Notes: generated by a model from the sequence alone, not told the origin. A stretch of DNA of 64,000 nucleotides from an uncultured Spirochaetota bacterium (GCA_963781885.1 CAWAHW010000004.1:32001-96000), one strand, 5' to 3'; positions 6,690 to 62,890 are shown, counted from the first letter of the stretch. Numbers and translations are program-made.

Positions 6690-6690
6690 C

Positions 6691-10938: not shown

Positions 10939-10947
10939 CGGAATCTC

Positions 10948-13521: not shown

Positions 13522-13571
13522 CGCACGCCTCCGTTGGTGAAATGTGTGTTCCGATCTCGGGCTTCAAATCT

Positions 13572-14729: not shown

Positions 14730-14754
14730 TGCAGCCTCCATAACAATCTGGATG

Positions 14755-24731: not shown

Positions 24732-25054
24732 TGAAAGGATTTGATGGTCTTCTGTCCCTGCCGCCCGCGGCGCTCGCCGCGCTCTGTGTGCTTGCCGCGG
24801 CGCAAATCGCGCTGGACGTCATCGCGCTGGTCGACCTCGCCCGACGCCCGACCGCAAGGCTCACGATCGCCAACAAGTGGGTCTGGGTGGCGATCATCAT
24901 CGTGGTGAGCATGATCGGCGCGATCGTGTACCTCGCCGCGGGCCGCAAGGCGGGGCCCGCAGCGGACATCCGACCGGCATCTCCCGCCGCCGCGCGTGCC
25001 GCCGATGCGGCGGACCTGCTGTACGGCCCGCGAAAGGATGCCCCCAAGCAATGA
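24728..25054 (+). CDS. Small membrane protein with PLDc_N-like domain
   Basis: ALVDL…KWVWVAIIIVVSMIGAIVYL pattern. Confidence 0.8.
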   Translation: MMKGFDGLLSLPPAALAALCVLAAAQIALDVIALVDLARRPTARLTIANKWVWVAIIIVVSMIGAIVYLAAGRKAGPAADIRPASPAAARAADAADLLYGPRKDAPKQ

Positions 25055-25981
25055 ACGACGCGCTCGTCGTACGGGATGTCACGAAGCACTACGGCAGGAA
25101 GTGTGCCCTGGACCATGTCGACCTCAGGGTCGAGGAGGGGTCGCTCTTTGGCTTCCTCGGGCCGAATGGGGCGGGAAAAACCACGATGCTTCGCATCCTC
25201 ACGGGCCTGGCGCGGCCGACGTCCGGCAGCGTGAGCGTGCTGGGCAGCGACGTGGCGCGCGCCGGGCAATGCCGTGCGCGCCGGCATCGGCTACCTGCCG
25301 GACGTGCCCGGCTTCTATAACTGGATGACCGCCAATGAGTTCCTTGGATTCTCCGGCGGGTTGTTCGGCATCGGCCGGCCGGCGCTCGACGCGCGCATCC
25401 GTGTCCTGCTGGGTCTGGCCGGGCTCAACGGCGTCACGACCCGGATCGGGGGCTACTCGCGCGGCATGAAGCAGAGGCTGGGGATCGCGCAGGCGCTGAT
25501 CAACGCCCCACGGCTGCTGCTGCTCGACGAGCCGACAAGCGCGCTCGACCCGATGGGCCGCAAGGAAGTCCTCGACATGCTCGAAACGCTGAAAGGCCGC
25601 ACGACGGTGTTTTTCTCCACGCACATCCTTGCGGACGTCGAGCGCGTCTGCGACACGGTCGCCATCCTCGACCAGGGACGCCTCGTCGCCCAGGCTCCGA
25701 TCGACGAGCTGAAGGCGCGCTACGGCGCTTCGAAGATAGTCGTGGAAGTGGAGGAAGGCGCCGATGAGCTCGCCGCCGCACTCGGCCGGGAGCCGTGGAC
25801 GTCGGCGGTCGCGCGTGCCGACAACGGGGGAATCATCGTCACGGTGAGTGACACGGCCGCGGCGAAGCGGACAATCCCGGCGATGGTCGCCGCGCGGGCA
25901 CTGGCGCTCACGCGCATGGAGGCGGGGGAAATGGGGCTGGAAGAGGTATTCGTCCAGCTCGTGAGCGGGAGGAAGCTATGA
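25051..25981 (+). CDS. ABC-2 type exporter ATP-binding protein, +1 frameshift near 25265
   Basis: Walker A GPNGAGKTT is in one frame, and YSRGMKQR/LLLDEP/STH in another; removing one G from GCCGGGCAAT restores ARAGNAVRAGIGYLP. Confidence 0.9.
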
Positions 25982-39355: not shown

Positions 39356-39594
39356 GATGATCGGCTCCCTCCATGCCCGGCGGCCGTTCGCGCGCCGTTG
39401 CTTGCATGCAGCACAATGATCGCCCGGACGACACGTCACAGACAAGGGGGATTGGCCTCCCGTTGGCGCACGGTTCCCCCTGATGGGAGCGCTCACGATC
39501 CGCGCAATCCGACCTCAGCCCTCGGCGCGCCGCGGCTCTTTGCCGGGGCGTTCGCCGTCGTCAATAGCGATTCGCAAAGGGCGGAGCCGAGGCG

Positions 39595-40613: not shown

Positions 40614-40806
40614 CCCACGACCAGCTCGTTTCCTGACCTAATATAGCATGAGCAACATGGGATGTAAATGGCACATATTGAAAATATACGTCATTTGAAG
40701 ACGCATATTTGCAGTTTGAAATCATTATTAGTACCAATAATTGCATATTAGTTTTAATTACTTATAATATATATATTTAGTTTTAGTAATAAATTGAGCT
40801 TTTTTC

Positions 40807-40835
40807 TTGACTTGTCAACAAACGAGTCATATGAT
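40807..40835 (+). promoter_or_regulatory. Sigma70-type promoter of the sugar ABC operon within a very AT-rich intergenic region
   Basis: TTGACT(40807-12)-N17-TATGAT(40830-35), preceded by an AT-rich tract at about 40720-40806. Confidence 0.65.
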
Positions 40836-40871
40836 GGCAAATATAAATCTCATCAGAAAGAGGAGGAGCAA

Positions 40872-42176: not shown

Positions 42177-42245
42177 AGCCCGGGTGCAAAGGAAAGCCCA
42201 TGGGCAGCGCTCATGGCCTTCTCGTCCTGACGCAAAGGAATAGTC

Positions 42246-43133
42246 GTGGACAAGATGCTGCGGAATGGCGGGACGATTGCTCTTTTCATCCTGCCGGTCT
42301 TCCTCGTGTATTCCCTGATCATTCCGATCCCGCTCATCACGTCTCTCGTCCTGAGCGGCTTCGATTGGAATCTTCTGGGACCCATGAAATTCATCGGCCT
42401 CAGGAATTTCATCAACCTCTTCACCACCGACTTCATCCTCATGCAGGCACTGAGGAACACACTGGTGTACCTGGTCTTTTCCATCCTCCTGCAGCTTCCA
42501 ATGGCGTTCCTCCTTGCCAATATCCTGGGAGCAAACCTGCCCGGGAGAAACGCTTTCCGGACAATACTCTACATGCCCGTGACATTTTCCGGCGTGGCGG
42601 TTTCCCTCATCTGGTATTTTTTCTACCACCGTCGGTCTGTTGAACCAGTTCATCCGATTGATCGGGTTTGCAAACTTCCACCTGGCGTGGCTCGACACGG
42701 GACCGCCCGCGCTCGGCGCCGTCATCGTGAGCGTTGCATGCAATGGACGGGTTATCACATGGTGCTCTATCTCGCCGGCATGGCGAGCATCCCGGATGAG
42801 GTGATCGAATCCGCAAGGATGGACGGCGCGAACGCCCTGCAGCTCGCGCGGCATATCATCTTCCCCTTCCTGCTGCCGATGTTGTCCGTCAGCACCGTCC
42901 TGATCACCACCTCGTCCCTCAAGAGCTTCGACAGCATCTACATCATGACTGACGGGGGACCCAACCATGCCACGGAGGTGCTCGCCTCCCACATGTACGT
43001 GAAGTCTTTCGCACAGTTGAAATATGGATACGGAAGCGCCATCGGCGTCCTGTTGTTCATTCTCTGCGTTGTCGCGACCTTGATCATTCGACGAACTTAC
43101 AAAAGCCTCGGGGAGGAAGACTTTGAAGAATAA
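42246..43133 (+). CDS. Carbohydrate ABC permease, with compensating frameshifts at about 42630 and 42740
   Basis: FIGLRNF, EAA motif ESARMDGA, TDGGPN; the segment VGLLNQF…AVIVSVA is displaced into another frame. Confidence 0.9.
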   Translation: MDKMLRNGGTIALFILPVFLVYSLIIPIPLITSLVLSGFDWNLLGPMKFIGLRNFINLFTTDFILMQALRNTLVYLVFSILLQLPMAFLLANILGANLPGRNAFRTILYMPVTFSGVAVSLIWYFFYHRRSVEPVHPIDRVCKLPPGVARHGTARARRRHRERCMQWTGYHMVLYLAGMASIPDEVIESARMDGANALQLARHIIFPFLLPMLSVSTVLITTSSLKSFDSIYIMTDGGPNHATEVLASHMYVKSFAQLKYGYGSAIGVLLFILCVVATLIIRRTYKSLGEEDFEE

Positions 43134-43956
43134 GCGTCCTTCCCCCATCGACGTCATCAAGTATGCCTTCCTGATTGCCTACGCGCTGATGATTCTCGTG
43201 CCGCTGTTCTTCATCCTGATCTCGTCCCTCAAGGATGACCAGGACATATTCATGCATCCGTTCGCCCTCCCCCAGACCTGGCATTTCGTCTATTACAAGG
43301 AAGTCTGGGTCAACTATGACCTGTACAAATACTTCATCAACAGCATCTATTACACGTCCGTTTCCGTCATTGCCACCATTTCACTGTGCGCCCTGGGCGC
43401 CTACGCAGTCGTGCGTCTGAAATGGAGGCTGAAGAACGTCGCGTTCGGCTATTGCCTGCTCGGCCTGATGGTCCCGACGCATGCGCTGGTGGTTCCCCTC
43501 TACATCATGGCCGTGAAGCTCAGGGTCAACGATCCCCGGATTACGATCGTGTTGATCATGACGGCCACCCATATCACGACGTCCCTGTTTATCCTGAGCG
43601 GCTATCTGAAAAAGATGCCTCTGGAAATGGAAGAAGCGGCGGTCATCGATGGCTGTTCGATCACGAGCGTCTTCTTCCGCATCGTTGCCCCGATCATGCA
43701 GCCGGCAATCGCAACCGTGGCCATCTTCACGTTCCTCTCCATCTGGAACGATTTCTTCGTCAGCCTCATTTTCATCGATAACCAGAAGCTCTGGAGCATC
43801 CAGCTCGGGATGAGCATGTTCAAGGGAAGCCTGTCTGTGAGCTATTCGCACCTGCTTGTCGCGATCTCCATCACCATCATCCCCGCCATTGTCCTGTACG
43901 CGTTCCTGAACCGGAAGATCATCGCCGGCTTGACCGCGGGCGCAGTGAAGGCGTAG
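43123..43956 (+). CDS. Carbohydrate ABC permease
   Basis: SSLK, YFINS, EEAAVIDGCS, WNDF, GLTAGAVKA. Confidence 0.93.
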   Translation: MKNKRPSPIDVIKYAFLIAYALMILVPLFFILISSLKDDQDIFMHPFALPQTWHFVYYKEVWVNYDLYKYFINSIYYTSVSVIATISLCALGAYAVVRLKWRLKNVAFGYCLLGLMVPTHALVVPLYIMAVKLRVNDPRITIVLIMTATHITTSLFILSGYLKKMPLEMEEAAVIDGCSITSVFFRIVAPIMQPAIATVAIFTFLSIWNDFFVSLIFIDNQKLWSIQLGMSMFKGSLSVSYSHLLVAISITIIPAIVLYAFLNRKIIAGLTAGAVKA

Positions 43957-43978
43957 GGCGGCGAAAGAGGAAATGCCC

Positions 43979-44845
43979 ATGGAACTTATTTTTCTCGGCA
44001 CGGGAGCGGCGGAAGGGGTCCCGGCGGCCTACTGCCGATGCGCCATCTGCCAGGGCGTCAGGCAAAGAGGCGGCGTGGAGGTGAAATCCCGTTCCTCCTT
44101 CCGTGTCGGACCCCATCACCAGATCGACATCTCTCCCGATCACTACTGGCAGATGATCAGAACAGGCACGGATATGTACGATGTCGAGCATGTCCTCATC
44201 ACCCACACGCACGAGGATCACTGTTCGCTCTTCGCGCTCCTCGACAAGGAAATGGCCGAGGAAGGCAACCGCAAGCCCCTTTCCCTCTACATGTCCAAAC
44301 CTGCCAGAGTATATGTCCAGGAGATGATCGCACACCTCTCGCTCCCCGCAGGGAAGATGCGCTGGATCGACGCGAACTTCGCCTTCCACGGTCTGGACTA
44401 TTTCCAGGAGTATGCAATCGGCGGCCTTTCGGTAAGGACGGTCAAGGGAAACCACACCGCCTACGGAGCAAACGAGTATTCCATCAACTACCTTGTGGGC
44501 ATGCCGCACGGGAAGACGCTCCTGTACGCCTGCGACACGGGCTTCTACCAGGAGGAGACGTGGGAATACCTTGCGGGTAAGCATGTCGATGTGCTCGTCT
44601 TGGAGTGCACCTTCGCAGGGCGGACGGACCGCGGGGAGTTCCCCGAGGCCCACCTGGACCTGGCAAGCTGGTTCGCGACGCTGGGCCGCATGTCAGACAC
44701 CGGTTTCATCGACGCGAAGACCATGGTATACGCCACGCACCTCAACCCTCACCAGGGGCTCGACCATTTCGGCCTCCACGACAGGCTCCAGCACAGCCCC
44801 TACCATGGCACGGCGGCGTACGACGGGCTGCGCGTCGAGGTGTGA
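43979..44845 (+). CDS. MBL-fold metallohydrolase, PhnP-like
   Basis: FLGTGAAEGVP..CRCAIC, THTHEDH, YACDTG, ECT, ATH, AYDG; alternative start at 43973. Confidence 0.85.
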   Translation: MELIFLGTGAAEGVPAAYCRCAICQGVRQRGGVEVKSRSSFRVGPHHQIDISPDHYWQMIRTGTDMYDVEHVLITHTHEDHCSLFALLDKEMAEEGNRKPLSLYMSKPARVYVQEMIAHLSLPAGKMRWIDANFAFHGLDYFQEYAIGGLSVRTVKGNHTAYGANEYSINYLVGMPHGKTLLYACDTGFYQEETWEYLAGKHVDVLVLECTFAGRTDRGEFPEAHLDLASWFATLGRMSDTGFIDAKTMVYATHLNPHQGLDHFGLHDRLQHSPYHGTAAYDGLRVEV

Positions 44846-50445: not shown

Positions 50446-51197
50446 AGGTGGAGATTTACAGGACCGTGAAGAGCAGGGATATCCTGCTGGAGTTCTACGA
50501 CGGCGTGATGCATGGATGGAGCTTCCGCATGAATCGCTAATGGTTCCGACCCGGTTCGGCGAAACGCACATCATCATGGCAGGCAGCGTCGGCACGCCCG
50601 CGCTCGTGCTGCTGCACGGCGCTGCATCCAACCTGCTGGGCTGGAGCGGTGCCATTCCAGAATACAGTGGAGATTTCCGTGTGATCGCCCTGGACATCCC
50701 CGGCGAGGCAGGCAAGAGCGCCCCGGTGCGCCCGTCCTGGAACAACGACGACTACGTGCGGTGGCTGGACGATGTGCTGAATGCGACGGGAACAGAAAGG
50801 GCGGCGCTGCTGGGAATTTCCTTCGGGGGATGGCTAGCGGCAAAGTACGCGACGTACCGGCCCGAGCGGGCGAGCAAGCTCGCGCCGTTCTCACCCGCGG
50901 GCATCGCACCGGCCAGGACGTCGGCGATCGTGAAAACGATCCTGTATTCGATGCAGAAGGAAAAAGGAGCGAAAAAGATAAAGCGCCTGGTGTTCGGCAC
51001 GGGACGACGAGCTCAAGCGCATCTCATGCCCCGTGATGATGACGACGGGCGGAGAGGACGCCTTCTTCAACGCCCGAAAGGCGGCCGCACGGCTGAAGCG
51101 CTGCCTGCCCGATGCGAGAATCAACATCATTCGCCATGGCACGCACGGCATCACGGAATACGGAGGAAGCATCGCGCGTTTCCTTGTGGACGGATAA
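50442..51197 (+). pseudogene. Alpha/beta hydrolase (esterase) disrupted by frameshifts near 50518 and 51003
   Basis: MKVEIYRT… N-terminus; LLHGA and GISFGG in ORF 50516; the C-terminus DDELKRISCPV..GGEDAF..GTHG..FLVDG* is in another frame; the cap region looks shortened. Confidence 0.75.
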
Positions 51198-51372
51198 ATC
51201 ACGCCGGGCGCCGCCGTGCCCGATTCCTTCCCGGAGGCGTCGTCTCCGAGCACGAGACGGCGATGGACGGCTTCGCCCGGGGGACCTGCTCCAGCCCAAG
51301 ACGCGATGAGCTGACATCGCGTGATGGCTCCTCCCGTGCACGGCGGGTGGAAGAAGCGCGCGCAGAAAATTG

Positions 51373-51430
51373 TTGACATCCTCCCGCGGCGGTCTCATAC
51401 TGCAGCGGCTGGTGGTAATACCACCAGCCG
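51373..51430 (+). promoter_or_regulatory. Promoter and FadR/GntR-type operator
   Basis: TTGACA(51373-78)-N17-CATACT(51396-401); perfect CGGCTGGTGGT-AAT-ACCACCAGCCG (51406-30). Confidence 0.78.
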
Positions 51431-51446
51431 TCACCGGAGGAAAGGC

Positions 51447-52151
51447 GTGAAACAGCTTCTCAAGCCCGTCCAACTCCCCACCCTCAGGAAAGAGGTGGTC
51501 CGCCAGATTGAGGACCTCATCCTTTCCGGCCAGGTCAAGCCTGAGGAGAGGCTGCCCCCCGAACGCGACCTTGCGTCGCTCCTGGGCGTCTCCCGCCCGG
51601 TCGTGCACGCGGCCATCATGGAGCTGGAGCAGAAGGGCCTGGTGCGCAGCGAGCCGCGGCACGGCTGCTTCGTCAACGACTATCGCCAGTCCGGCAGCGC
51701 GGAGCTCCTGACCTCCCTGTGGCGCCACGGCGGCGACAAGCTTGCCCCTGCAATCGTGGAAAGCATGATGGAGCTGCGTGTCGCCGTGGAGCAGGAAGCC
51801 GCGTCCCGTGTCGCGCGGCTGGGAGACCGCACGCTCTGCCGGGAGCTGCGCCGCATCCTGGATGAGGCCGATGCGTTGCCGGCGTCGGACGCGGCTGCGC
51901 AGGTGGAGTACGACTACCGCTTCCACTTCACCATTGCGCTTCGCAGCAACAACATCGTCTATCCCATGCTCATGAACACTTTCAAGCAGATGTACTTTTC
52001 CATCCTGACGGGCTTCTTCGAGAACCAGGCAGTGGTTCCCCGTGTGCACAAGTACCGCCGCAACCTCCTGGCTGCCATCGAAAAGAAGAACCCGAACCGG
52101 GCCCGGGACCTGATGCGGAAGCTGAGCAAGGTGAGCTCCTATGAACGGTAA
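51447..52151 (+). CDS. FadR/GntR family transcriptional regulator
   Basis: LPPERDLASLLGVSRPVV HTH, FCD domain (DYRFH…SNN); GGAGG RBS, GTG start. Confidence 0.93.
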   Translation: MKQLLKPVQLPTLRKEVVRQIEDLILSGQVKPEERLPPERDLASLLGVSRPVVHAAIMELEQKGLVRSEPRHGCFVNDYRQSGSAELLTSLWRHGGDKLAPAIVESMMELRVAVEQEAASRVARLGDRTLCRELRRILDEADALPASDAAAQVEYDYRFHFTIALRSNNIVYPMLMNTFKQMYFSILTGFFENQAVVPRVHKYRRNLLAAIEKKNPNRARDLMRKLSKVSSYER

Positions 52152-53889
52152 GCTGCTCCAGCGGTCCCGACGGGCGCTGCGCAAGACGGGCATGCGGGAC
52201 GTCACGTGCGAGGATCTCGGAGAGTCGATCAGGCTGACGGGCGAGCTTCCGACGTGGGAGAGGAAGGTGCAGGCCGGGCATATCGCCGCGGCCCGCGGCC
52301 ACTGTGAGGTTGTGAACGACGTCGTGGTCCCGGGGTTGACCGAGCCTGCCATGAGCGTCCCTGGCTTCACGGATTCAAGCCTGGAGGGAGCGGAGTACGA
52401 CGTTGTGGTGGTGGGCGCCGGAGTGATTGGCGCGGCCGTTGCGCGGGAGCTCTCACGCCATCGACTTCGGATCGCCGTGGTGGAGAAGGAAGATGATGTC
52501 GCGTTCAACACGACAAGCCGCAACGATGGCATGGTTCACCCCGGACTGGAGCCCACGCATGGCACTCTGAAAGCGTCCTGCAACACCCGGGGAAATCGCA
52601 TGTATACGCAGGTGTCGCAGGAGCTGGGCTTCGAGCTGCAACGCCCGGGCTCCATCATGCTCTTTGACAGGAGAATCAAGTGGCTGCTCGTGCCGCTGCT
52701 GGCCCGCCGCTGCCGAAGGAACGGCGTCCCGGGAGAGTGGCGCTACGTCTCAGGCCGCGAGGTCCGGCGCCTGGAGCCGCACGTCACGCCGCGTCAGCGC
52801 GGCGGCTTCTACGTGAGCTGCACGGGCATCGTCAATCCCTTTGAGGTGACCATTGCGTACGCGGAAAACGCGGCGCAAAACGGCGTGGTCTTCCACCTTC
52901 AGACCGCGGTGCTCGGCTTTGGCACCGTGGATAACGGAGACGGCAGACGCATCGACACCGTGCGCACGAACCGCGGCACGCTTTCAACGCGCGCCGTCGT
53001 GAACGCCGCGGGAAACTGGGCGGACGTGGTGGCTGCCTCCGCGGGGGACCGCTCGTTCTCTCTTCACGGGCGACGGGGGGTGGACGCGATCATTGACAAG
53101 CGTCTTGTGGATACGCAACGCCACGTGCTCGGCATGCCCATGTTCCTGAAGAGCATGGAAAGCCACAGCAAAGGCGGCGGCCTGGTGGTCACCGTTGAAG
53201 GCAACCTCCTTGCAGGCCCAACGGCCGCGGAAACGCCGTACCGGGAGGACTACTCCACGACAGCCGCGGACCTGGCCGAGCTCACGCGTCACCTTGAGCT
53301 GAACACATCCGTCCTGCCGACGGACATCATCACGTACTTTGCCGGTGTCCGGCCCGCAAGCTATTCGGAGGACTTCATCATCCGAAGGTCTTCCACGGTC
53401 GGAAACCTCATCCACGCCGCGGGAATCCAGTCTCCCGGCCTCGCCTCAGCGCCCGCCATAGCGGTGGACGTGGCCGCCTTCACCGTTGAAGCGCTGTCGG
53501 AACGCCAGCAGGTGCTCCCCAACACGGACTTCGTGGCTACGCGAAAGCCGCGGATCCGGCCCGGACGGCTCCCGCTCGCGGAGCGCGCGCGCTGCATCGC
53601 GGAGCGCCCGGACTACGGACGGATCGTTTGCCGCTGCGAGGAAGTCTCGGAGGGCGAAGTGAGGGACGCGCTGCGCTCCCCCTTGAAGGTGTCCAGCCTG
53701 GACGCGGTCAAGCGTCGGACACGGGCGGGCACGGGGAGGTGCCACGGCGGTTTTTGCCTGCCCCGGCTCATCGAGATCATCGCGGACGAGACGGGCCAGC
53801 CGCTCACGGGCATCCGAAAGAAAGGTCACGACTCGTACCTGGTGGCAGCGGAGACCAAGAAACCCGTGACGGAGGCCACGCATGGCTGA
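52141..53889 (+). CDS. FAD-dependent glycerol-3-phosphate dehydrogenase/oxidase-like protein (BON-like N-terminus, BFD-like [2Fe-2S] C-terminus)
   Basis: VGAGVIG, TSRNDGMVH, GIQSPGLASAPA, CRCE…KRRTRAGTGRCHGGFC. Confidence 0.85.
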   Translation: MNGKLLQRSRRALRKTGMRDVTCEDLGESIRLTGELPTWERKVQAGHIAAARGHCEVVNDVVVPGLTEPAMSVPGFTDSSLEGAEYDVVVVGAGVIGAAVARELSRHRLRIAVVEKEDDVAFNTTSRNDGMVHPGLEPTHGTLKASCNTRGNRMYTQVSQELGFELQRPGSIMLFDRRIKWLLVPLLARRCRRNGVPGEWRYVSGREVRRLEPHVTPRQRGGFYVSCTGIVNPFEVTIAYAENAAQNGVVFHLQTAVLGFGTVDNGDGRRIDTVRTNRGTLSTRAVVNAAGNWADVVAASAGDRSFSLHGRRGVDAIIDKRLVDTQRHVLGMPMFLKSMESHSKGGGLVVTVEGNLLAGPTAAETPYREDYSTTAADLAELTRHLELNTSVLPTDIITYFAGVRPASYSEDFIIRRSSTVGNLIHAAGIQSPGLASAPAIAVDVAAFTVEALSERQQVLPNTDFVATRKPRIRPGRLPLAERARCIAERPDYGRIVCRCEEVSEGEVRDALRSPLKVSSLDAVKRRTRAGTGRCHGGFCLPRLIEIIADETGQPLTGIRKKGHDSYLVAAETKKPVTEATHG

Positions 53890-55168
53890 GCGGGCGTCAG
53901 ACGTCGCCGTGATCGGCGGAGGCCCGGCAGGGCTGCAAGCAGCAAGGTCCGCGGCTGACGCCGGAGCGCGCGTCCTGATCGTGGAGCGCGAAGAGAGGCT
54001 GGGAGGCATCCTCAAGCAGTGCGTCCACGACGGGTTTGGAGTCATGGAGTACGGAGAGCGGCTCACGGGCCCCGAGTATGCCTGCCGCGACATCGCCGCA
54101 ATCAAGAATCGCGACATCCCGTATGAGACCAGCGCCTTCGTGCATTCCCTTGCCCGGGACGGAAACGCCTGGACCATCACGCTGGTGACGCCTCGGGGAG
54201 GCGTGGAGGAGCTGCGCTGCCGCAGCGTGATCATGGCAACAGGCTGCCGCGAGCGCACGGACAGGCAGGTGTTCCTGCAGGGGGACAGGCCTGCCGGCAT
54301 CTTCACGGCGGGCCAGGCCCAGCGCCTCATCAACATCAACGGCGTGCTGCCGGGAAAGCGCGTGGTCATCCTGGGATCGGGAGACATCGGCCTCATCATG
54401 GCCCGGCGCTTCACGCTGGAAGGCGCCGCCGTGCTGGGGATCTACGAGATCAAGGACGCGCCATCAGGCCTCACGCGCAACATCGCGCAGTGCGTGGAGG
54501 ACTGGAGCATCCCCCTGCATCTCAAGACCACCGTCACGAAGATCCACGGCCGTGACCGCGTGGAAGCAGTCACCGTCTGCCCGGTGGACGCAAATGGAAG
54601 ACCCGATCTTGACCGCGGCTGCCGCGTGGCCTGTGACACGCTTGTGCTGAGCGTGGGACTCATCCCGGAAGACGACATTCTCTGGGGCCTTGGCCTCGCG
54701 ATGGACGAGCGCACGCGCGGACCCTTCGTCAACCAGCACCGTGAGACCGCGATGCCCGGCCTGTACGTCTGCGGCAATGCACTCCACGTGTATGACCTGG
54801 TGGACTACGTCTCTGAATGCGGCCGCACCGCGGGCCAGAGCGCTGCCCGATACTGCGCCGGGCCTGCCGGAGCGGCGCGCCCTCCCGGGCTTCTCCTCCA
54901 GGCCGCGGACGAGCTTCTCTACCAGGTGCCGCAATACGTGGATCCGGGCGCCGTGGAGCCGCCGGCATTCTTCTACAGGGTGCGGCGCGCCATGGAGCGG
55001 GCCGTCCTTACGATCTCCGTGGAAGAAAGGGAGCTGGAAAGCAGGCCCTTGAGATACTGCAGACCGCAGGAAATGGAGCGCTATGAGATGGCCCCTGCCA
55101 CGTGGGAGGGCATGAGATCCGCGCGATGTCCGGTGCGGCTGTCTGTTCAGGAGGTTCGCCATGGGTAA
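53882..55168 (+). CDS. Pyridine nucleotide-disulfide oxidoreductase family flavoprotein
   Basis: IGGGPAG, GGILKQCVHDGFG, ATGCRER, LGSGDIG, CGNALHVYDLVD. Confidence 0.88.
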   Translation: MAERASDVAVIGGGPAGLQAARSAADAGARVLIVEREERLGGILKQCVHDGFGVMEYGERLTGPEYACRDIAAIKNRDIPYETSAFVHSLARDGNAWTITLVTPRGGVEELRCRSVIMATGCRERTDRQVFLQGDRPAGIFTAGQAQRLININGVLPGKRVVILGSGDIGLIMARRFTLEGAAVLGIYEIKDAPSGLTRNIAQCVEDWSIPLHLKTTVTKIHGRDRVEAVTVCPVDANGRPDLDRGCRVACDTLVLSVGLIPEDDILWGLGLAMDERTRGPFVNQHRETAMPGLYVCGNALHVYDLVDYVSECGRTAGQSAARYCAGPAGAARPPGLLLQAADELLYQVPQYVDPGAVEPPAFFYRVRRAMERAVLTISVEERELESRPLRYCRPQEMERYEMAPATWEGMRSARCPVRLSVQEVRHG

Positions 55169-55526
55169 TTTCCCCCTTGCACGGACGTGCATCGCCTGCC
55201 CGCGGGGATGCCGCCTGGATATTCAAAAGCGTGGAGAGGAGCTCGTTGTGAGCGGCAACGGCTGTCCCAAAGGCGTGCCGTACGGCATCCAGGAGGCCAC
55301 GGCGCCGCAGCGCATCCTCACAACCACGGTCCGAACGACCTTTGCGGACTTGCCGCGGCTCCCGGTCAAAAGCTCCGCGGAGGTGCCGCTTGCGGAGATT
55401 CCAAGGCTCATGCGGCTCATCGACGCCGTGTGCGTGGACCGCGCGGTGGGCTGCGGAGATGCCGTGCTCCGGGGTCTTCTGTCTCCCGGCGTGGACCTGA
55501 TCTGCACGGACGAATCATATGCGTGA
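55161..55526 (+). CDS. DUF1667 CxxC protein (small subunit of G3PDH-like complexes)
   Basis: TCIACPRGC…GNGCPKG…PQRILTTTV…LPVKS. Confidence 0.88.
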   Translation: MGNFPLARTCIACPRGCRLDIQKRGEELVVSGNGCPKGVPYGIQEATAPQRILTTTVRTTFADLPRLPVKSSAEVPLAEIPRLMRLIDAVCVDRAVGCGDAVLRGLLSPGVDLICTDESYA

Positions 55527-57152
55527 CCTCCTGTGCGCCATAGATTGCGGCACGCAGAGCCTGCGCCTGATGCTCTTCCACCCGGACGGCAGGGTGGAAG
55601 GCGGCCAACATATCCACTACCAGCCCTACAGCACGCCGCATCCGGGGTGGGCGGAGCAGGACCCGCAGGTTTTCTGGAACGCGCTGTGCCGCGCCGGCCT
55701 CTGCGTCTTGCATACGGCAAAGCTCAGGGATCGCGTGGCAGCGGTGGGTGTCACGTCGCAACGCGACACCATGATCTGCATGGACAGGGACGGACAGGCG
55801 CTTCGGCCGGCCATCACGTGGCTGGACACGAGAAAGGATCCGGTTTCTACCGCCCAGGACTTCCCATGCGCGTTCTCTACCGCCTTGCAGGAATGACGGA
55901 CACCATGGCGAAAACAATGGCCGACGGAAAAGTGAACTGGATCCGCCGCAATGAGCCTGAGATCTGGGAGAAGACATGGAAGTACGTCCAGGTGTCGGGG
56001 TTCCTGAACTTCAGGCTTTCCGGGGAGGTGGTGGATTCCGTTTCGTCCATCGTCGGCCACGTGCCGATGGACTACCGTGGAAGGCGTTGGGCGTCCCCGC
56101 ATGATCTGACGTCCCGCATCTTCCCCGTGGAGCAGGAGAAACTCTATACGCTCGTCGAGCCCGGCACACGGATCGGAGAGGTCACCAGGGAGGCGGCAAG
56201 AGCCACCGGCCTCCGCCCGGCATCCCGCTTGTCGCCTGTGGAGCGGACAAGGCTTGTGAGACACTTGGCCTCGGTGTGAAGGATCCCAGCGTGGCCTCTC
56301 TCAGCTTCGGCACGACGGCGACGGTGGAGGTGATGACACCGCGCTACTTCGAGCCCCTGCCATTCATCCCCGCCTACTGCGCCGCGCGTCCGGGCTACTA
56401 CAATCCGGAAGATCGAGGTTCTCCGCGGCTACTGGATGATAAGCTGGTTCAAGGAAGTGATGGCCTACCATGAGAGAGAGGAAGCAGAGCGCACGGGCGC
56501 CTGTCCAGAGGATCTCCTTGACCCGCTCCTGGATGAAAGCCCTCCGGGAAACCGCGGGCTCCTGCTGCAGCCCTTTTGGGGCCCCGGGCTGCTTCGGCCG
56601 CACGCGCGCGGCGCCATTGTCGGTTTCGGGGATTGCCATGACCGCGCGGCCGTCTATCGGGCGATCGTGGAGGGTTTGGCCTACTCTCTCCGCGAAGGGC
56701 TTGAGTCCCTGCAGCGCAGCGGACACGCGACGATCCGCTCTGCGGCCGCCTCGGGCGGAGCGAGCAGGAACAGCCGCATCTGCCAGATCACGGCTGACGT
56801 CCTGGGAAAGCCGCTCGTGCGCGGCGTGACACCGGAGGCGAGCGCTCTGGGCGCTGCCCTGATCACGGCGGTGGGGGCGGGAATACATTCCGGCTTTGAT
56901 GAAGCCGTCGCGGCCATGATTCACCCCGGAGATGAGTTCCATCCGCGCAAGGACCTTCGCGCGCTCTATGACGATCTGTACGGCGTCTACGAGTCCGTGT
57001 TCCCATCGATGGACGGCATCTACCGCAGGCTCCGACGCATCACGGGTCATCCAGAAATCGCGCCGTCGAACGTGCAGGCGGCGCGCGCGCCGGCCTCCCG
57101 CGTCCCCGCTTCGCGCGCGCCAGCGCCCCGCGCCGCGGCATCGCACCTGTAG
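55519..57152 (+). CDS. FGGY family carbohydrate kinase, three frameshifts (~55836, ~56220, ~56409)
   Basis: AIDCGTQS, PGWAEQDP, TSQRDT, (GADKACE) SFGTTA, ARGAIVGF, YRAIVEG, GGAS spread over four consecutive frames. Confidence 0.88.
57084..57143 (+). repeat. Four degenerate 15-nt tandem repeats encoding RAPAS/RVPAS/RAPAP/RAAAS
   Basis: Direct reading of the 3' end of the kinase gene. Confidence 0.6.
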
Positions 57153-57166
57153 AGGAGACACTCGCC

Positions 57167-58921
57167 ATGTCAAAGTACAAGGGCTTCAGGCCGGACTGGG
57201 AGCACCTCCCGCCGCCTGCCGGTTCTTTCCGTTCCCTCCTGAAATGGGGAAGCCCGACGGAGTTCAAGGCGCCCAATGAGCCCCTCTATCGACTCATGAA
57301 GCAGACGTTCGGCCTGACGGACGAAGATTTCACGCACAAGCTCGACGAGGGTCTTGATCCCGTGTGTGACACGGTCCCTTCCCGGATGGACCCGGCGCAC
57401 GTCGCGTTCCTGCGCTCGGTGGTGGGAGAGCAGAACGTATCGCTGGACACATTTGCGCGGCTCTCCGTGGCATATGGCAAGACCATGTGGGACGTCTACC
57501 GGCTGCGGGAAAAGCTCATGGAGAACCTGCCGGACGCGGTTGCATATCCGTCAGAAAAGGCCCAGATAGAACGGATCGTGGAGTACTGCGGCCGCCACGC
57601 CATTGCGCTGTACGTCTATGGCGGCGGCTCCTCGGTGACCCGGGGTGTGGAAGCATTTCGGGGCGGAATCACGCTGGACATGCGGCGCAGCTTCACCAAG
57701 GTCATCTCCTTCAGCGAGGCGAACAGCACGATCACGGTGGAGGCAGGCATCAGCGGGCCGAAGCTGGAGGACGCGCTGAACAGGGCGCCGGAGCTTTTTG
57801 GCGCGGCGCACGCATATACCTGCGGCCATTTCCCCCAGTCCTTCGAGTACTCGTCAGTTGGCGGCTGGGTCGTGACCCGGGGCGCGGGACAGAACTCCAC
57901 CTATTACGGCAACATCCATGACCTGGTGATGGGCCAGGAGTACGCCACCCCGCGCGGCCCGGTCAGAAGCTATGGCCTGCCCGCGCACGCGGTGGGTCCG
58001 GACATCGATGAGATCATGATGGGAAGCGAGGGCGCCTTCGGCGTTCTCACGCACGTGACGCTGAAGGTCTTTCGGCTCACGGCGGCCAACCGTCAGAAGT
58101 TCAGCTACATCTTCCCCAGCTGGGAGTCCGGCCGCAAGGCGGTTCGGGAGATCATGCAGGCCGGGGCAGGCTTCCCGTCGGTTTTCCGTCTCTCTGATCC
58201 CGAAGAGACCGATGTTGCCCTCAAGCAGTACTCCGTTGAGGGCACGCCGCTTGACACGGCCATGCGGCTCCTGGGCTACAAGCCCCGCCGCCGCTGCCTT
58301 CTCCTGGGCTGGACGGAGGGGGAGCGCGGGTTCGCACGGAACCTGCGGCACGTTGTGGGACGCATTGCGCGCCGCGCGGGCGGCCTTTCTCTCACCTCCT
58401 ACCCCACCATCAAGTGGGAGCACAGTCGATTCCGGGACCCCTACTTGCGCGAGGCGCTCCATGACTACGGCGTGGTGATCGACACCATGGAATGCGGCGT
58501 CACATGGGAGAGCATGGAACGGGTGTGGGCTGGCGTACGCGCCTTTGCCAAATCCCGGCCGCGCACGATCTGCATGACGCACCTGTCTCACATGTACCCG
58601 CAAGGCGCCAACCTCTACTTCATCTTCATTGGGCGCTTCAAGGACAAGGAAGAGTACCTCGAGTATCAGAGCGGGATCTTCGACAACATCCAGGCCCTGG
58701 GCGCGAGCATGAGCCACCATCACGGCGTGGGAAAGGCCACTGCGCGATGGGTGGAGGATTCAATCGGGCGGGAGCAGCTCGAGCTTTTCCGCGCCCTGAA
58801 GCACCACTTTGATCCTGAAGACGTGATGAACCCCGGTGGCACTGTCGCGCTGGACCTCCCGGATTCGGAAAAACGCGTACCTCGATTCGCGCTCCGCGGC
58901 TGGGACGATCCCGCGTATTGA
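57167..58921 (+). CDS. Alkyl-dihydroxyacetonephosphate synthase-like FAD-linked oxidoreductase (VAO/PCMH family)
   Basis: YGGGSSV, GHFPQSFEYSSVGGW..TRGAGQ, GSEGAFGV, GANLYF, SHHHGVGK, MNPG. Confidence 0.88.
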   Translation: MSKYKGFRPDWEHLPPPAGSFRSLLKWGSPTEFKAPNEPLYRLMKQTFGLTDEDFTHKLDEGLDPVCDTVPSRMDPAHVAFLRSVVGEQNVSLDTFARLSVAYGKTMWDVYRLREKLMENLPDAVAYPSEKAQIERIVEYCGRHAIALYVYGGGSSVTRGVEAFRGGITLDMRRSFTKVISFSEANSTITVEAGISGPKLEDALNRAPELFGAAHAYTCGHFPQSFEYSSVGGWVVTRGAGQNSTYYGNIHDLVMGQEYATPRGPVRSYGLPAHAVGPDIDEIMMGSEGAFGVLTHVTLKVFRLTAANRQKFSYIFPSWESGRKAVREIMQAGAGFPSVFRLSDPEETDVALKQYSVEGTPLDTAMRLLGYKPRRRCLLLGWTEGERGFARNLRHVVGRIARRAGGLSLTSYPTIKWEHSRFRDPYLREALHDYGVVIDTMECGVTWESMERVWAGVRAFAKSRPRTICMTHLSHMYPQGANLYFIFIGRFKDKEEYLEYQSGIFDNIQALGASMSHHHGVGKATARWVEDSIGREQLELFRALKHHFDPEDVMNPGGTVALDLPDSEKRVPRFALRGWDDPAY

Positions 58922-59017
58922 AGCAGGCGCGGCGGTTTTCCGCAGCCCCCCTGCCCCGGACGGCCGTGTGGCGCGGTAAAGCGCCAATGGTGGGCGCACG
59001 GCGCCGGCGGGGACAGC

Positions 59018-59046
59018 TTGACCATTATGCCGGCGCGGATTAAGGT
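59018..59046 (+). promoter_or_regulatory. Putative sigma70 promoter
   Basis: TTGACC(59018-23)-N17-TAAGGT(59041-46). Confidence 0.45.
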
Positions 59047-59086
59047 CTGATTCAATCCTTCATCCTCTCCATAGGAGACACCTCTG

Positions 59087-59743
59087 ATGAAAAAAAGCCT
59101 GGCTGCAGCGCTCATGTTGCTCGGAGCAACAACGGCTTACTCGGCGCCCCTCCTCCCCCCGTCCTGGGGCGCCATCTTCTACGCGTCCGGCGGCTACAGT
59201 GCGGACACGGTCACCTACACGTCGACGGCCGCCCTCCCGACAAGAGTGGACGCATCGGGGCTCGTCCTTGAGCTCGGGGGCTCCGTGCGTTGGATCCCGG
59301 TCACTTTTCTCGCCGCGGAGGCCACTGTCGGAAGCGACTGGTATACAGGGGTCGACGGAGCGTTGACGCGGATGGGGACGCTGAGTCCTTTTGGCAGCTC
59401 CACTATCTACACCGACTCCTCCGACTACGCAAGTGGAGACGACGAGTCCATCTTCCTGGCCGCAGACGTTTATCTCTGCCTTCCCTTCCTGCCCTTCAAC
59501 CTGTTTGCCGGCTACAAGCACAACTGGTTCATCGCGAGCCTGGTGACCACGATGGTGGGCTCCGACGAGCTGCGCTTCGGCGTTGAGATCCTTGCCACCC
59601 GCTTTCTCTCCGTGAAGATCGCGGGAGAGATCCCTTTCGCGTACGGAGCCACCTACACGATGATGGACGGCGCCACGGTCAGTCCCGGCTCCGGCTACAA
59701 CATCACCGCGGAAGCCGTCTACAGATTCGACTCCGGGGAGTAA
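59087..59743 (+). CDS. Hypothetical exported protein, possible small outer-membrane beta-barrel
   Basis: Signal peptide, alternating hydrophobic strands, near-terminal AVYRF; AGGAGA RBS. Confidence 0.65.
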   Translation: MKKSLAAALMLLGATTAYSAPLLPPSWGAIFYASGGYSADTVTYTSTAALPTRVDASGLVLELGGSVRWIPVTFLAAEATVGSDWYTGVDGALTRMGTLSPFGSSTIYTDSSDYASGDDESIFLAADVYLCLPFLPFNLFAGYKHNWFIASLVTTMVGSDELRFGVEILATRFLSVKIAGEIPFAYGATYTMMDGATVSPGSGYNITAEAVYRFDSGE

Positions 59744-59747
59744 GCTA

Positions 59748-61184
59748 ATGAAGAAACACACCCTCGTCATTGCCCTTTGTGCCGGCCTGCTCTGCCTCAT
59801 GATCCTTGGCTGCGCAACCCCCTTCTACCAGGACCGACGGCGCGCCCTCATTTACTCGCCCCCCGCGTCCTTCCATCCCTACAGCACGGCGCTCGCAAAG
59901 GAGCTGGGATACAAGGAGCAGTGGAAGCTTCCGCTCGCGGGCACGACGAACGTCGACGCGGCGAGCCTCCAGATCACACGGATCACGGACGAATCCTTCG
60001 TCGCGTCGCTGAAGGAGACGCCGCTCGCGGGAGAGCGCACGACCAATTTCCTGGTGAGCGGCATCCACACTGCCTCCCCACGGATCGTTTCCCGCAGCTT
60101 CCCCGGCACCATCCTCCCCGTGGGCGGGGAGATCTACTGCGTGGAAGAGACCTCGACGGGCTTCTCGCTCTCCGCATACGATGAGAACATGTCCCCGACG
60201 GACGTGAAAAAGATCACCTGCTACAAGTACAAGCACGCGGAGAACAACATGCTGGACTCCACCAGCACCGGCAATTTCCACGAGGAGGGCAACATCAGCT
60301 CGTACTTCTACGCGGATCCCTACATCGTGTTCACCTCCGTCAACTATTCCACGGACAAGTATTACGCCTCCACGCACTACCAATCCCAGGCCGTGTCCGC
60401 CAACACCGTCCAGTTCATCTGCGTGAACCTGCTCACCGGGGACACGTTCAGGACCGCGGAGGTGAACTTCGGCCCCTATTACAAGAGCCAGAACAACAAG
60501 GCGCTCCCCGGCGTGCTCACACCCTCCAGTTCCGCCTTTTTCGTCATCCCGGACCAGGTGGCCTTCGCCTTCACCCTCACGGATGACCAGAAGGACTCGT
60601 ATCTTTGCTACTTCACGCCCGAAGCGGGGAAGGACGCCGGGATCCGCGTCGATACGGCAGAGAACATCGTGAAGATGTTCCCCTCCCTGACGCTTACCAA
60701 CCAGGTGGTCATGGAGGAGACCGCCGAGATCCGCATCCTGCGACAGGCAATCAGCACCGGCGGGACGATAACCCTCGCAGGGGAGGACAGGCCGGTGATC
60801 GCGTTCCAGGGGATCCCCGGGGATGGCTTTCTCATCTATTCGCGTGAGAAGGCACGGAACGGTTCACCGTGCAGCCTGTTCTACACGGACCTCACCCTCC
60901 AGACCGTCCGCTGGAAACACGACTTTGCTAAGGGCGTGACGGTATCCGAGGGAGTCGTGAACACGGCGGATGGGAATGTCCTGCTCACGGACTGCGATGC
61001 GTCCGGGGGCGGGCTCCTGCTCGTGAAGATGCTCCAGACGGGAAACGAGAGCAGGCTGGTACCGGTGAACGTCGTGCAAAAGGACTTGGACGCCGATGCC
61101 GCGGGGTACTGCTTCGTCGGCGGCGGACTTGCCCTGTACGACGACCAGTCCGGAACGGTGTCGTACTTCATCCAGCAGAAATGA
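59748..61184 (+). CDS. Hypothetical lipoprotein
   Basis: MKK..hydrophobic..ILGC lipobox; long ORF with genome-typical GC3 bias; beta-rich. Confidence 0.75.
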   Translation: MKKHTLVIALCAGLLCLMILGCATPFYQDRRRALIYSPPASFHPYSTALAKELGYKEQWKLPLAGTTNVDAASLQITRITDESFVASLKETPLAGERTTNFLVSGIHTASPRIVSRSFPGTILPVGGEIYCVEETSTGFSLSAYDENMSPTDVKKITCYKYKHAENNMLDSTSTGNFHEEGNISSYFYADPYIVFTSVNYSTDKYYASTHYQSQAVSANTVQFICVNLLTGDTFRTAEVNFGPYYKSQNNKALPGVLTPSSSAFFVIPDQVAFAFTLTDDQKDSYLCYFTPEAGKDAGIRVDTAENIVKMFPSLTLTNQVVMEETAEIRILRQAISTGGTITLAGEDRPVIAFQGIPGDGFLIYSREKARNGSPCSLFYTDLTLQTVRWKHDFAKGVTVSEGVVNTADGNVLLTDCDASGGGLLLVKMLQTGNESRLVPVNVVQKDLDADAAGYCFVGGGLALYDDQSGTVSYFIQQK

Positions 61185-62890
61185 GCTCTCTCCTTCCCCG
61201 CATGAAGCTCCTGCGATACGTCCCTGGCGTCTTCATTCTGCTCACCATGCTGGGATGCGTGACCCGGCTCACGCCGGCACCCGGTCTGTTCCCTCCGGGC
61301 GAATGGAATGGCACTCCGGTCGTGCAGACCGAGTACGGCCTGGTTTCCGGGGCTGCCGATGCCGAACGCACGTGGGCATGGAAAGGAATCCCGTACGCGG
61401 CGCCGCCCGTCGGGGATTTGCGGTGGAAAGCCCCCCGACCGCCCGCCTCCTGGCAGGGGATCCGAGAGGCGGACCGGTTCGGCAATTCATCTGCGCAAGT
61501 CGTGCCCATCCTGGGGCAAATTGGTTCCGAGGACTGCCTGTATCTCAACGTCTGGAGGCCGAAAAGCGCAGAAGGAATGCTTCCGGTGTACGTATTCGTC
61601 CACGGCGGAGGAAACACCATCGGAAGCTCGGACCTTCCCGACTACCATGGCAACGCGGTGGCTGCGCGGTCGAACATGGTCTACGTGTCCCTCAACTACC
61701 GCCTGTCCGTATTTGGATGGTTCCGCTCACCGGCGCTGACGGCGGGTGAGTCGGCGCTGGACGCTTCGGGCAACTATGGGACGCTGGACATCATCGCGGC
61801 GCTTCGGTGGGTCAAGGAAAACATCGCGGCATTCGGCGGCGATCAATCCAGGGTGACGGTGGCGGGAGAATCCGCGGGTGGTTTCAACGTGCTGTCACTC
61901 CTCGTTTCTCCCGAGGCGGAGGGTCTGTTCCAGAGGGCCGTCGTGGAGAGCGGCATGACGGTGATGGAGAGCACGGAGACGGCAGAGCATGCCGCCAGGA
62001 CAATCACCCTGAAGCTCCTTGTGCGCCGTGGAAAGGCGAAGAACATGCAGGATGCCGCGGCGGTGCTCGATGCAATGTCTGACACCGACATTCGCGCCTT
62101 CCTCTATTCCGTGCCCACATCGGACTTTCTCCGGTCACTGGACAAGAGCCCGGTCGGGCTTGCAATGGCGGACTGGCCCACCATCTACGCGGACGGAGCC
62201 GTGCTGCCTTCAGCAGGGTACAGGGTATTCGGGGACGGAAGCTATCCGAACAAGGTTCCCCTCGTCATCGGGACAAACAAGGATGAGGCCAAGCTCTTCA
62301 TGTTCTTTGGCAAGCAGTATCAGCAGGACCCCGCACTCTATGACGCCATCGCAGCCTACCGCACCGCGTTGTGGCGCTACGCGGGCGTGGACTCCGTGGC
62401 GCAGGGGATAACCGCGCAGGAGGGGCATCCGCCGGTGTATGCGTATCGCTTCGACTGGGGCAGCCCTGACACCCGCGGCCGAAGCCCCTTGCCGGGCGAC
62501 CTTGGACGGCGGTTGGGCGCCTTCCACTCCACGGAAATTCCTTTCTTCCTTGGCACGGGCAGGAATTCCGTCTCATTCATGACGGGGCAGTTCTTTACCG
62601 CGGCCAACGAGCCCGGCCGAAAGGTTCTCACCGAAGCGGCCATGCGCTATCTCGCAGCCTTTGCACGGACGGGCAATCCGAACGACGCAACTGGCGCCTC
62701 GCTTCCCGCCTGGGAGCCTTGGGACCCCGCGGACGGAGGATTCAAGGCCCTCGTCATGGACGTTGACGGGGACGCGTTGCACTTTTCCGCCCTGCATGAA
62801 AGCCCGTCGCTCGCATCGATCAAGTCCACGGCACCGGCCTCGTACGGCGCCGGAGCTGACATGGGATTGCTGCGGGAGATCGCAGAGTAG
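61181..62890 (+). CDS. Type-B carboxylesterase/lipase, probable lipoprotein
   Basis: KGIPYAAPPVGDLRW, SEDCLYLNVW, VHGGG, GESAGG, GAFHSTE; MLGC lipobox; alternative start at 61202. Confidence 0.94.
   Translation: MSSLLPRMKLLRYVPGVFILLTMLGCVTRLTPAPGLFPPGEWNGTPVVQTEYGLVSGAADAERTWAWKGIPYAAPPVGDLRWKAPRPPASWQGIREADRFGNSSAQVVPILGQIGSEDCLYLNVWRPKSAEGMLPVYVFVHGGGNTIGSSDLPDYHGNAVAARSNMVYVSLNYRLSVFGWFRSPALTAGESALDASGNYGTLDIIAALRWVKENIAAFGGDQSRVTVAGESAGGFNVLSLLVSPEAEGLFQRAVVESGMTVMESTETAEHAARTITLKLLVRRGKAKNMQDAAAVLDAMSDTDIRAFLYSVPTSDFLRSLDKSPVGLAMADWPTIYADGAVLPSAGYRVFGDGSYPNKVPLVIGTNKDEAKLFMFFGKQYQQDPALYDAIAAYRTALWRYAGVDSVAQGITAQEGHPPVYAYRFDWGSPDTRGRSPLPGDLGRRLGAFHSTEIPFFLGTGRNSVSFMTGQFFTAANEPGRKVLTEAAMRYLAAFARTGNPNDATGASLPAWEPWDPADGGFKALVMDVDGDALHFSALHESPSLASIKSTAPASYGAGADMGLLREIAE

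Follow-up and report, generated by a model that had tools for sequence, protein, structure and literature searches.

Gene content, conservation and control region of the operon

An operon of six genes with its own control region occupies positions 51373..58921, on the plus strand, of the window, which is the whole 64,000-nucleotide stretch of DNA from an uncultured Spirochaetota bacterium (GCA_963781885.1, CAWAHW010000004.1:32001-96000) and to which all coordinates refer. The operon combines a regulator, a dehydrogenase trio of the FngABC type, an FGGY kinase and a flavoenzyme resembling alkyl-dihydroxyacetone phosphate (alkyl-DHAP) synthase (ADPS or AGPS), and it is considered here as a candidate for the salvage of lipid-derived glycerol backbones. 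Open reading frame (ORF) calls and a Pfam profile search agreed with the gene set listed in the first-pass annotation. The first gene encodes a 234-residue GntR-family regulator with a FadR_C/FCD ligand domain (51448..52151; GntR 67.5, FadR_C 68.1 and FCD 60.2 bits), and is followed by a gene for an FngA-type, GlpA/GlpO-like flavin adenine dinucleotide (FAD) dehydrogenase with a C-terminal BFD [2Fe-2S] domain (52141..53889; DAO 204.3 and Fer2_BFD 52 bits). Next come an FngB-type pyridine-nucleotide/FAD oxidoreductase (53882..55168; Pyr_redox_2 99.6 bits), an FngC-type cysteine-rich protein (55161..55526; DUF1667 75.2 bits), the FGGY kinase gene (55519..57152; FGGY_N and FGGY_C on its pieces) and a 584-residue ADPS/AGPS-like flavoenzyme of the VAO family (57167..58921; FAD_binding_4 and FAD-oxidase_C), all on the plus strand. 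The tight packing described earlier was also found, with successive overlaps of 11, 8, 8 and 8 bases, and 14 bases separate the kinase gene from that of the flavoenzyme. The kinase, which had been taken for a single ORF, reads in three frames instead. None of the operon's proteins reached an NCBIfam equivalog cut-off.

The gene set had been expected not to be unique, and a pattern scan over one genome per species matched at least 597 stretches, with 594 confirmed relatives, placing the five-gene core in at least 594 species genomes. The host lineages include Clostridia, Treponema, Brachyspira and Thermotogae; the 'Corallococcus' label of one locus (L045, from a 1.5-Mb genome) was not taken as evidence for myxobacteria. 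All locus counts given out of 80 refer to the best 80 of the matched stretches. Cultured anaerobes with an intact cassette among them include Brassicibacter mesophilus DSM 24659 (L007), Clostridium subterminale JCM 1417 (L008) and Clostridium amylolyticum DSM 21864 (L010). The linkage of kinase, dehydrogenase and ADPS-like enzyme was found to be strongly conserved, as the ADPS-like gene is flanked on its own strand by the full trio in 69/80 loci, by the FGGY kinase in 49/80 and by both in 42/80. FngB and FngC are each syntenic in 71/80 loci, whereas the kinase occurs without the full trio in 7/80 and neither occurs in 4/80, two of these four being incomplete loci. Among the 60 loci with enough flank, the trio was present in 54 and the kinase in 40.

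The sole sigma-70-like site within 51000-59300 is a promoter-like sequence on the plus strand, TTGACA-17 nucleotides-CATACT (51373..51401), which matches 10 of 12 sigma-70 positions. The regulator ORF as listed (51321..52151) would overrun this promoter, and hence GTG at 51448, with the ribosome-binding site GGAGGA 5 nucleotides ahead of it, is taken as the most likely start. Directly after the promoter-like site lies a perfect 11-1-11 palindrome, GGCTGGTGGTA-A-TACCACCAGCC (51407..51429), containing TGGT-N3-ACCA, the operator consensus of FadR-subfamily GntR regulators. Its centre, TGGTAATACCA (51413-51423), is the single match to the motif in the window, where 0.43 are expected, and at least one match arose in 35 of 100 shuffles. 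Palindromes with 10-base arms arise 0.5 times per shuffled window, so that the length of the palindrome alone is weak evidence. Three AT-rich Treponema loci (L001, L002 and L003) have the same motif, with its core kept, ahead of their cassettes and at a position matching that of the window, and in the alignment of these regions only TTGACA and GTGGTAnTACCAC are invariant. This invariant footprint in four aligned regions makes it very likely that a real operator lies at the promoter, as had been proposed.

The regulator itself is, on its profile scores, a FadR-subfamily GntR protein and not a FadR orthologue. It scored 71.2 bits with the FadR model NF003444 (cut-off 189) and 67.8 bits with TIGR02812 (cut-off 249.2), and the PdhR and LldR models scored slightly above FadR. 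Control by FadR had been proposed for the operon; judged by these scores the regulator gives no link to fatty acids. Among the loci compared, the FadR-type regulator is limited to the window and the three Treponema loci, the cassettes of other lineages having HutC-type GntR or TetR regulators instead.

The flavoenzyme and the dehydrogenase trio

The view that the flavoenzyme is closer to ADPS than to GlcD was supported by both sequence and model comparisons. It matched Dictyostelium ADPS (PDB 2uuu) with an E-value of 2.3e-64 (221 bits) and guinea-pig ADPS with 2.9e-53, against 8e-23 for glycolate oxidase and with D-lactate dehydrogenase among the weaker matches. The alignment joins its residues 70-557 to residues 86-581 of the ADPS chain, which is nearly the whole length. 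In a Foldseek search with its AlphaFold model (predicted local distance difference test, pLDDT, 74.3; low-confidence stretches 222-248, 270-290 and 519-526), ranks 1-37 were all AGPS/ADPS, and those listed had TM-scores of 0.66-0.75. The guinea-pig residues R419, T568, Y578 and H615-617, whose numbering is backed by the PDB titles 'Tyr578Phe' and 'Arg419His', align with R341, S474, Y484 and H517-519, all of which are invariant across 14 orthologues; the SHHHGVGK and GANLYF motifs reported earlier were both found. The cassette enzyme therefore shares with ADPS/AGPS (EC 2.5.1.26; PDB 2uuu, 4bby) a near-full-length match, the fold and the positions of the Arg, Ser/Thr, Tyr and HHH residues. Cassette enzymes are mutually 56-76% identical across phyla, whereas their scores with the ADPS chains of known structure are 184-221 bits (E-values 2.9e-53 to 2.3e-64) and the more remote homologues found in bacteria share 34% identity with them. 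These comparisons suggest a clade separate from ADPS.

This likeness may also be read as ether-lipid biosynthesis, in which a true alkyl-DHAP synthase would put a fatty alcohol in place of the acyl group and the Fng-type complex, run in reverse, would serve as an alkyl-DHAP reductase. Ether lipids or plasmalogens are known from many of the host lineages, the catalytic residues of ADPS are conserved, and the best structural matches of the model are all ADPS/AGPS. Judging from the available part of PMC13689815, reduction of the ketone by NADH together with reduction of ferredoxin would be the downhill direction of the FngABC reaction. On the other hand, ADPS has FAR and GNPAT as partners whereas the cassette enzyme has a dehydrogenase and a kinase; neither a fatty acyl-CoA reductase (FAR) nor a DHAP acyltransferase was among the annotated recurrent neighbour clusters of the 80 loci, no genome-wide search having been made. 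The synthetic route has no place for a kinase, and a dedicated repressor and a cassette found, out of 21 congeneric genomes, in the present one (G000) alone are unlike core membrane synthesis. Moreover, anaerobes are reported, in the accessible part of PMC13012113, to make plasmalogens via a different reductive pathway. Biosynthesis is thus considered very improbable.

The HHH motif and the Tyr had been regarded as marks of ADPS, but they are not diagnostic of acyl/alkyl exchange, as two homologues from sugar-type contexts keep both. E. coli K-12 YgcU, 29% identical to the cassette enzyme (E-value 7e-48), has HHHGIGK and the Tyr in NMYF and sits among sugar-type genes; in the ygc cluster ETF-like ygcQR, FixCX-like ygcNO, MFS transporters and an SDR stand in place of FngABC. 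The R, Y and HHH motifs also recur in a 713-residue homologue, 34% identical, from a sugar operon of a same-order genome. By these comparisons, the R/Tyr/HHH motifs are necessary and not sufficient for ADPS function. The 713-residue ADPS/YgcU-like flavoenzyme (locus L102, G030:C1:2040000-2058000, 4269-14359) carries a 290-residue N-terminal extension, and its operon also encodes a sugar ABC transporter (binding protein and two permeases), an FGGY kinase, a class II aldolase and a GH127 glycosidase. This apparent sugar operon points to an uncharacterised role of the ADPS fold in sugar catabolism.

These homologues bear on an alternative in which the operon encodes a soluble polyol or sugar pathway ('FnpABC'), where the kinase would phosphorylate a small polyol, the Fng-type complex would convert the product by oxidation to a ketose phosphate, and the ADPS-like enzyme would act on this, and not on a lipid, as an isomerase, epimerase or dehydrogenase. 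The pairing of an FGGY kinase with an ADPS-like enzyme in the E. coli ygc cluster and in the G030 sugar operon favours it, as does the retention of the motifs in both homologues. Against 2uuu, however, the cassette enzyme scores 221 bits, higher than the sugar-operon homologue (180 bits) and YgcU (135 bits), and it is thus the nearest of the three to ADPS. Taken with the neighbourhood evidence below, we regard the polyol pathway as rather unlikely.

A complex of the same three families as the trio, in the same order, has been purified from P. furiosus and named FngABC by Schut et al. (Biochemistry, October 2026; PMC13689815). According to the part of that paper available, it is electron-bifurcating, the oxidation of glycerol 3-phosphate (G3P) and of reduced ferredoxin being coupled to the reduction of nicotinamide adenine dinucleotide (NAD+), and the DUF1667 protein is FngC. 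The window flavoprotein has the A-subunit features (DAO and a BFD-like [2Fe-2S] domain by Pfam), its best PDB match is the glycerophosphate oxidase 4x9m (E-value 6.4e-34), and the Pyr_redox_2 and DUF1667 genes adjoin it with 8-base overlaps. The three-subunit, G3P-dehydrogenase-like complex of the first-pass annotation therefore stands in its subunit families and is revised in its type, the trio now being equated with the electron-bifurcating FngABC, where bifurcation is known only for P. furiosus. The cassette differs from the P. furiosus system in an extra N-terminal BON-like domain, a non-GlpK kinase neighbour and the attached ADPS-like gene. Nor was a glycerol context (GlpK/GlpF) found beside the window trio, the adjacent kinase being far below the GlpK cut-off and the true GlpK being on another contig. 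In PMC13689815, as far as its text was available, 32% of FngABC loci are without glycerol genes and are assumed to use 'polyol' substrates ('FnpABC'), and many Clostridia homologues adjoin sugar kinases, not glycerol genes, which again favours the polyol alternative. The word 'alkyl' has no occurrence in the main text available, where neither an ADPS-like neighbour nor an N-terminal BON-like domain is mentioned, and its supplements, searched for 'alkyl', 'FGGY' and 'IPR025650', gave generic InterPro text only.

The cassette FngA has about 85 extra N-terminal residues (roughly residues 1-85; 52141-52395), which are BON-like by three tests. Pfam BON (PF04972) was the top match for this N-terminus in 10 of 12 orthologues (E-values 1.1e-6 to 0.016), and in L004 its score of 29.2 bits is over the Pfam cut-off of 27. 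The profile of 15 FngA N-termini had OsmY as its best PDB match (E-value 0.0027), and the predicted model of residues 1-95 (pLDDT 83.7) gave DolP, OsmY and DolP, which represent the alpha-beta-beta-alpha-beta fold of BON domains, as the top three Foldseek matches (E-values 9e-4 to 1.3e-2); one DolP/OsmY entry matched carries a title on phospholipid binding. Our own profile found the domain in 65 of 74 FngA-cluster ORFs, 14 of these 65 having been the profile seed, and did not find it in the 474-residue second FngA copies of L015 and L020, whose sequences begin directly with the FAD motif. The cassette FngA thus appears to carry a BON-like domain of the phospholipid-binding type as a new feature, and such a domain on a cytoplasmic dehydrogenase suggests that FngA is docked at the membrane through it.

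The kinase gene and the host genome

The frame changes of the kinase gene were located near 55837-55842, 56211-56217 and 56411 by tblastn with intact orthologues and by three-frame translation. The gene is read from 55519 to about 55840 in a first frame, from about 55840 to about 56214 in a second, from about 56214 to about 56411 in a third, and from there to 57152 again in the second frame. Each piece is well conserved within its own frame, and both FGGY_N and FGGY_C are detected but spread over three frames; a read-through meets three TGA stops. The intact orthologues have 518-525 residues in a single frame. Elsewhere in the genome of the window, over ten further FGGY genes are open across their matches, and the window is mostly tiled by long ORFs.

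Two other conserved genes of the window show frame changes. Immediately before the operon, an alpha/beta-hydrolase gene (50516-51376) changes frame near 51000, with its C-terminal part (ISCPVMMTTGGED...HGTHG) in the next frame, and an ABC transporter ATPase gene (25042-25981) is split, with Walker A in frame from 25042 and the remainder in the ORF 25274..25981. The split ATPase gene (about 25.25 kb) is a second conserved-gene frameshift and so bears on the quality of the assembly; since other conserved genes of the window are also frameshifted, the kinase breaks may be assembly errors. The clustering of the shifts, three in the 1.6-kb kinase gene versus two across the remaining 62 kb of the window, argues for real decay. 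Among public reads, no RNA run with the sequence was listed, and one DNA run contained 26% of the words sampled, at a depth of about 3x; its five small contigs are identical to the window where they overlap it and leave positions 55740-56660 uncovered. As they span none of the shift sites, they are uninformative on the reality of the breaks. A link of the shifts to GATC was considered without a conclusion being drawn: two of the three lie on GATC, but the window has 7 GATC per kb and its two other frameshifts are off GATC. The window holds 449 GATC in 64 kb, about twice the number predicted from base composition by a rough estimate.

The affinity of the kinase was judged with an intact orthologue, which scored 204 bits (28% identity) against YgcE, higher than against any solved kinase, and 131 bits each against Thermococcus glycerol kinase and E. 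coli xylulokinase. It has QRDT, a form of the GlpK-type QR(D/E)T motif, whose Arg-acid pair binds glycerol; glycerol kinase has QRET, xylulokinase has QMHG and YgcE is without the motif. The window pieces scored 63-65 bits against the GlpK model, with a cut-off of 590. The kinase had been called YgcE/xylulokinase-like rather than GlpK-like, and the YgcE part of this claim stands, whereas the contrast with GlpK does not, as glycerol kinase and xylulokinase score equally and the GlpK-type motif is kept.

The host assembly consists of 7 contigs and has a completeness of 92.55%. A true GlpK (667 bits versus the cut-off of 590) is encoded on another contig, and in this genome no second FngA or GlpA-type enzyme was found and no GlpD above cut-off. 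With GlpK elsewhere and FngA as the only GlpA/Fng-type enzyme, the complex could serve plain glycerol. This is the core of an alternative according to which the locus is here only an operon for a G3P dehydrogenase, or an acquired cassette in decay, where FngABC would use G3P from the separate GlpK, the kinase would be dead and the ADPS-like gene would be roleless and not yet decayed. The three frameshifts, this set of glycerol genes and the uniqueness of the cassette within the genus sample are in its favour. Yet the genes of the regulator, FngA, FngB, FngC and the ADPS-like enzyme (about 5.9 kb) are unbroken and rich in GC at third positions, cassettes without a kinase are common in nature (31/80 loci), and the breaks may be assembly errors in view of the other frameshifted genes. 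This alternative is therefore considered quite unlikely.

Searches of 20 same-genus, 4 same-family and 16 same-order genomes, many of which are incomplete, turned up no close homologue of the ADPS-like gene; one same-order genome has a distant homologue (34% identical). The named close homologues of the enzyme, which are 64-70% identical, are all from Spirochaetota, while those of Bacillota top out at about 61%. Because no close homologue was found in the relatives searched, the closest named homologues are from Spirochaetota and the operator is shared with Treponema loci, the simplest reading is that the operon was horizontally acquired as a spirochaete-type version, with its enzyme, regulator type and operator. 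The patchy distribution among relatives suits an accessory catabolic trait.

Other genes of the window may be noted here. At 40794-44845 (with 38510-40746), genes for a LacI-like regulator and for a protein of the PEP-mutase/isocitrate-lyase family adjoin those for a sugar-type binding protein, two permeases and a PhnP-like metallo-hydrolase; the PhnP-like hydrolase is 28% identical (E-value 2e-32) to the PhnP-like gene of kinase-less cassettes elsewhere. Downstream of the operon, 59087-62890 holds two lipoprotein-like ORFs that match no Pfam family and a type-B carboxylesterase whose N-terminus is also lipoprotein-like; all three are not conserved beside the cassette in other genomes. Dihydroxyacetone kinase subunits Dak1 and Dak2, beside alanine-dehydrogenase/transhydrogenase-type and transketolase-like genes, and an iron alcohol dehydrogenase are encoded at 3218-8739 and 13572-14741, which adds to the three-carbon metabolism of the window.

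Recurrent neighbours and the candidate pathway

On clustering all flanking ORFs of the 80 loci, no recurrent uptake transporter was found, and only two non-core clusters occurred in more than ten loci, both of them regulators present in 21 loci each (GntR/UTRA, i.e. HutC, and TetR). Neighbouring genes for generic ABC ATPases (cluster c7, 10 loci) were rejected as a cassette transporter because of their heterogeneity, being of branched-chain amino-acid, oligopeptide and exporter types. A lipid kinase of the YegS/Rv2252/BmrU family (128.4 bits versus a cut-off of 118.65) lies directly downstream of the ADPS-like gene in three loci, all without FGGY, a PhnP-like metallo-phosphodiesterase lies inside the cassette in five kinase-less loci, and a GlpD-type G3P dehydrogenase takes the place of FngA in L051 (Chloroflexota). 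The three variants fit one scheme, in which a (substituted) glycerol phosphate would be made, oxidised at C2 and passed to the ADPS-like enzyme. In M. tuberculosis, glpD1, a TetR gene, the ADPS-like Rv2251 and the lipid kinase Rv2252 are presumably adjacent as well. The lack of a recurrent transporter, which is unlike both sugar-context clusters, the alternative YegS-type kinase and the BON-like domain of FngA all count against the soluble polyol pathway, whereas the HutC/UTRA regulators of 21/80 loci and the soluble substrates of known FGGY kinases count for it.

An aldehyde:ferredoxin oxidoreductase gene was observed after the ADPS-like gene in six loci (L038, L042, L055, L057, L072 and L007). 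Were fatty aldehydes a product of the cassette, this oxidoreductase would also restore the reduced ferredoxin used by FngABC. Four of the five same-strand cases are labelled Christensenellaceae/Eubacteriales and have flanking clusters in common; the loci are thus not independent and little weight is given to them.

We read the operon as a repressor-controlled catabolic or salvage operon for a lipid-derived 1-O-substituted glycerol backbone, and a probability of about 45% may be assigned to this reading, which is drawn from sequence comparisons. The most likely substrates, we infer, would be alkyl or alkenyl glyceryl ethers or their lyso-phosphatidates, derived from membrane lipids. In the first step the FGGY kinase would phosphorylate the substituted glycerol; in other genomes entry would depend on a YegS-type lipid kinase, or on cleavage of a phosphodiester by a PhnP-like phosphodiesterase. 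In the second step the membrane-docked FngABC-type complex would oxidise C2 to give a substituted DHAP, with FngA contributing the BON domain and FAD, FngB reducing NAD and FngC forming the link to ferredoxin. In the third step the ADPS-like flavoenzyme would release DHAP and an alcohol or aldehyde by ADPS chemistry, which consists of enolisation, formation of a flavin N5 adduct at C1 and expulsion of the C1-O substituent. With the kinase out of frame in this genome, only already phosphorylated substrates could enter, and the PhnP-like hydrolase of the window could supply them.

The lipid reading gains from the BON domain, from the lipid-kinase and phosphodiesterase variants and from the absence of a recurrent transporter, and it is weakened somewhat by the occurrence of the diagnostic motifs in sugar contexts. 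Several points weigh against it. The ADPS motifs are shared by YgcU and by the 713-residue enzyme of the sugar operon, the known substrates of FGGY kinases are soluble sugars and polyols, and the HutC/UTRA regulators found at about a quarter of the loci often sense sugar phosphates. The kinase gene is broken in this genome, the lipid-kinase variant is rare (3/80 loci), the BON score of the window FngA (15.9 bits) is under the Pfam cut-off of 27, and FngABC may here simply serve glycerol. Schut et al. (PMC13689815, in the part available) take non-glycerol FngABC for polyol enzymes. The chemical logic put forward in the first-pass annotation thus survives as the best available reading, except that the HHH and Tyr motifs are not proof of a lipid substrate and the FadR family offers no fatty-acid link.

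A more specific and somewhat doubtful form of the lipid reading is an oxygen-independent cleavage of ether or vinyl-ether bonds. Here the BON-tethered bifurcating dehydrogenase would make alkyl-DHAP from 1-alkyl(enyl)-glycerol-3-phosphate, and the ADPS homologue would act as an etherase giving DHAP and a fatty alcohol or aldehyde. If the lipid reading is right, the net task would be that of AGMO, cleavage of the 1-O-alkyl bond of glyceryl ethers; AGMO is an oxygen- and tetrahydrobiopterin-dependent membrane di-iron enzyme of unrelated sequence. Brucella EryA/EryB and MurQ share the logic of phosphorylating a substrate, creating or using a carbonyl next to a bond and then breaking or rearranging it, but these routes have other downstream enzymes and are without an ADPS-like flavoenzyme.

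Animals and anaerobes are rich in ether lipids and plasmalogens. In the literature searched, neither a functional study of the cassette nor a paper on how anaerobes recycle these lipids was found, and in the accessible part of PMC9192799 the oxygen-dependent AGMO is called the only enzyme cleaving the alkyl ether bond. The new features reported in this study are the BON-like domain of FngA, the YegS-kinase variant, the lack of a conserved transporter, the operator shared with Treponema and the absence of the cassette from the 40 relatives searched. An operon joining ADPS chemistry to a bifurcating dehydrogenase is a concrete and testable candidate for anaerobic ether-lipid recycling. If the ether-cleavage reading is true, it would be an anaerobic counterpart of the animal AGMO in hundreds of gut, sediment and host-associated anaerobes. 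If the substrate is a soluble polyol, the ADPS fold would gain a new non-lipid reaction and the 'FnpABC' enzymes a substrate. Either outcome would give a function to genes of at least 594 species genomes.

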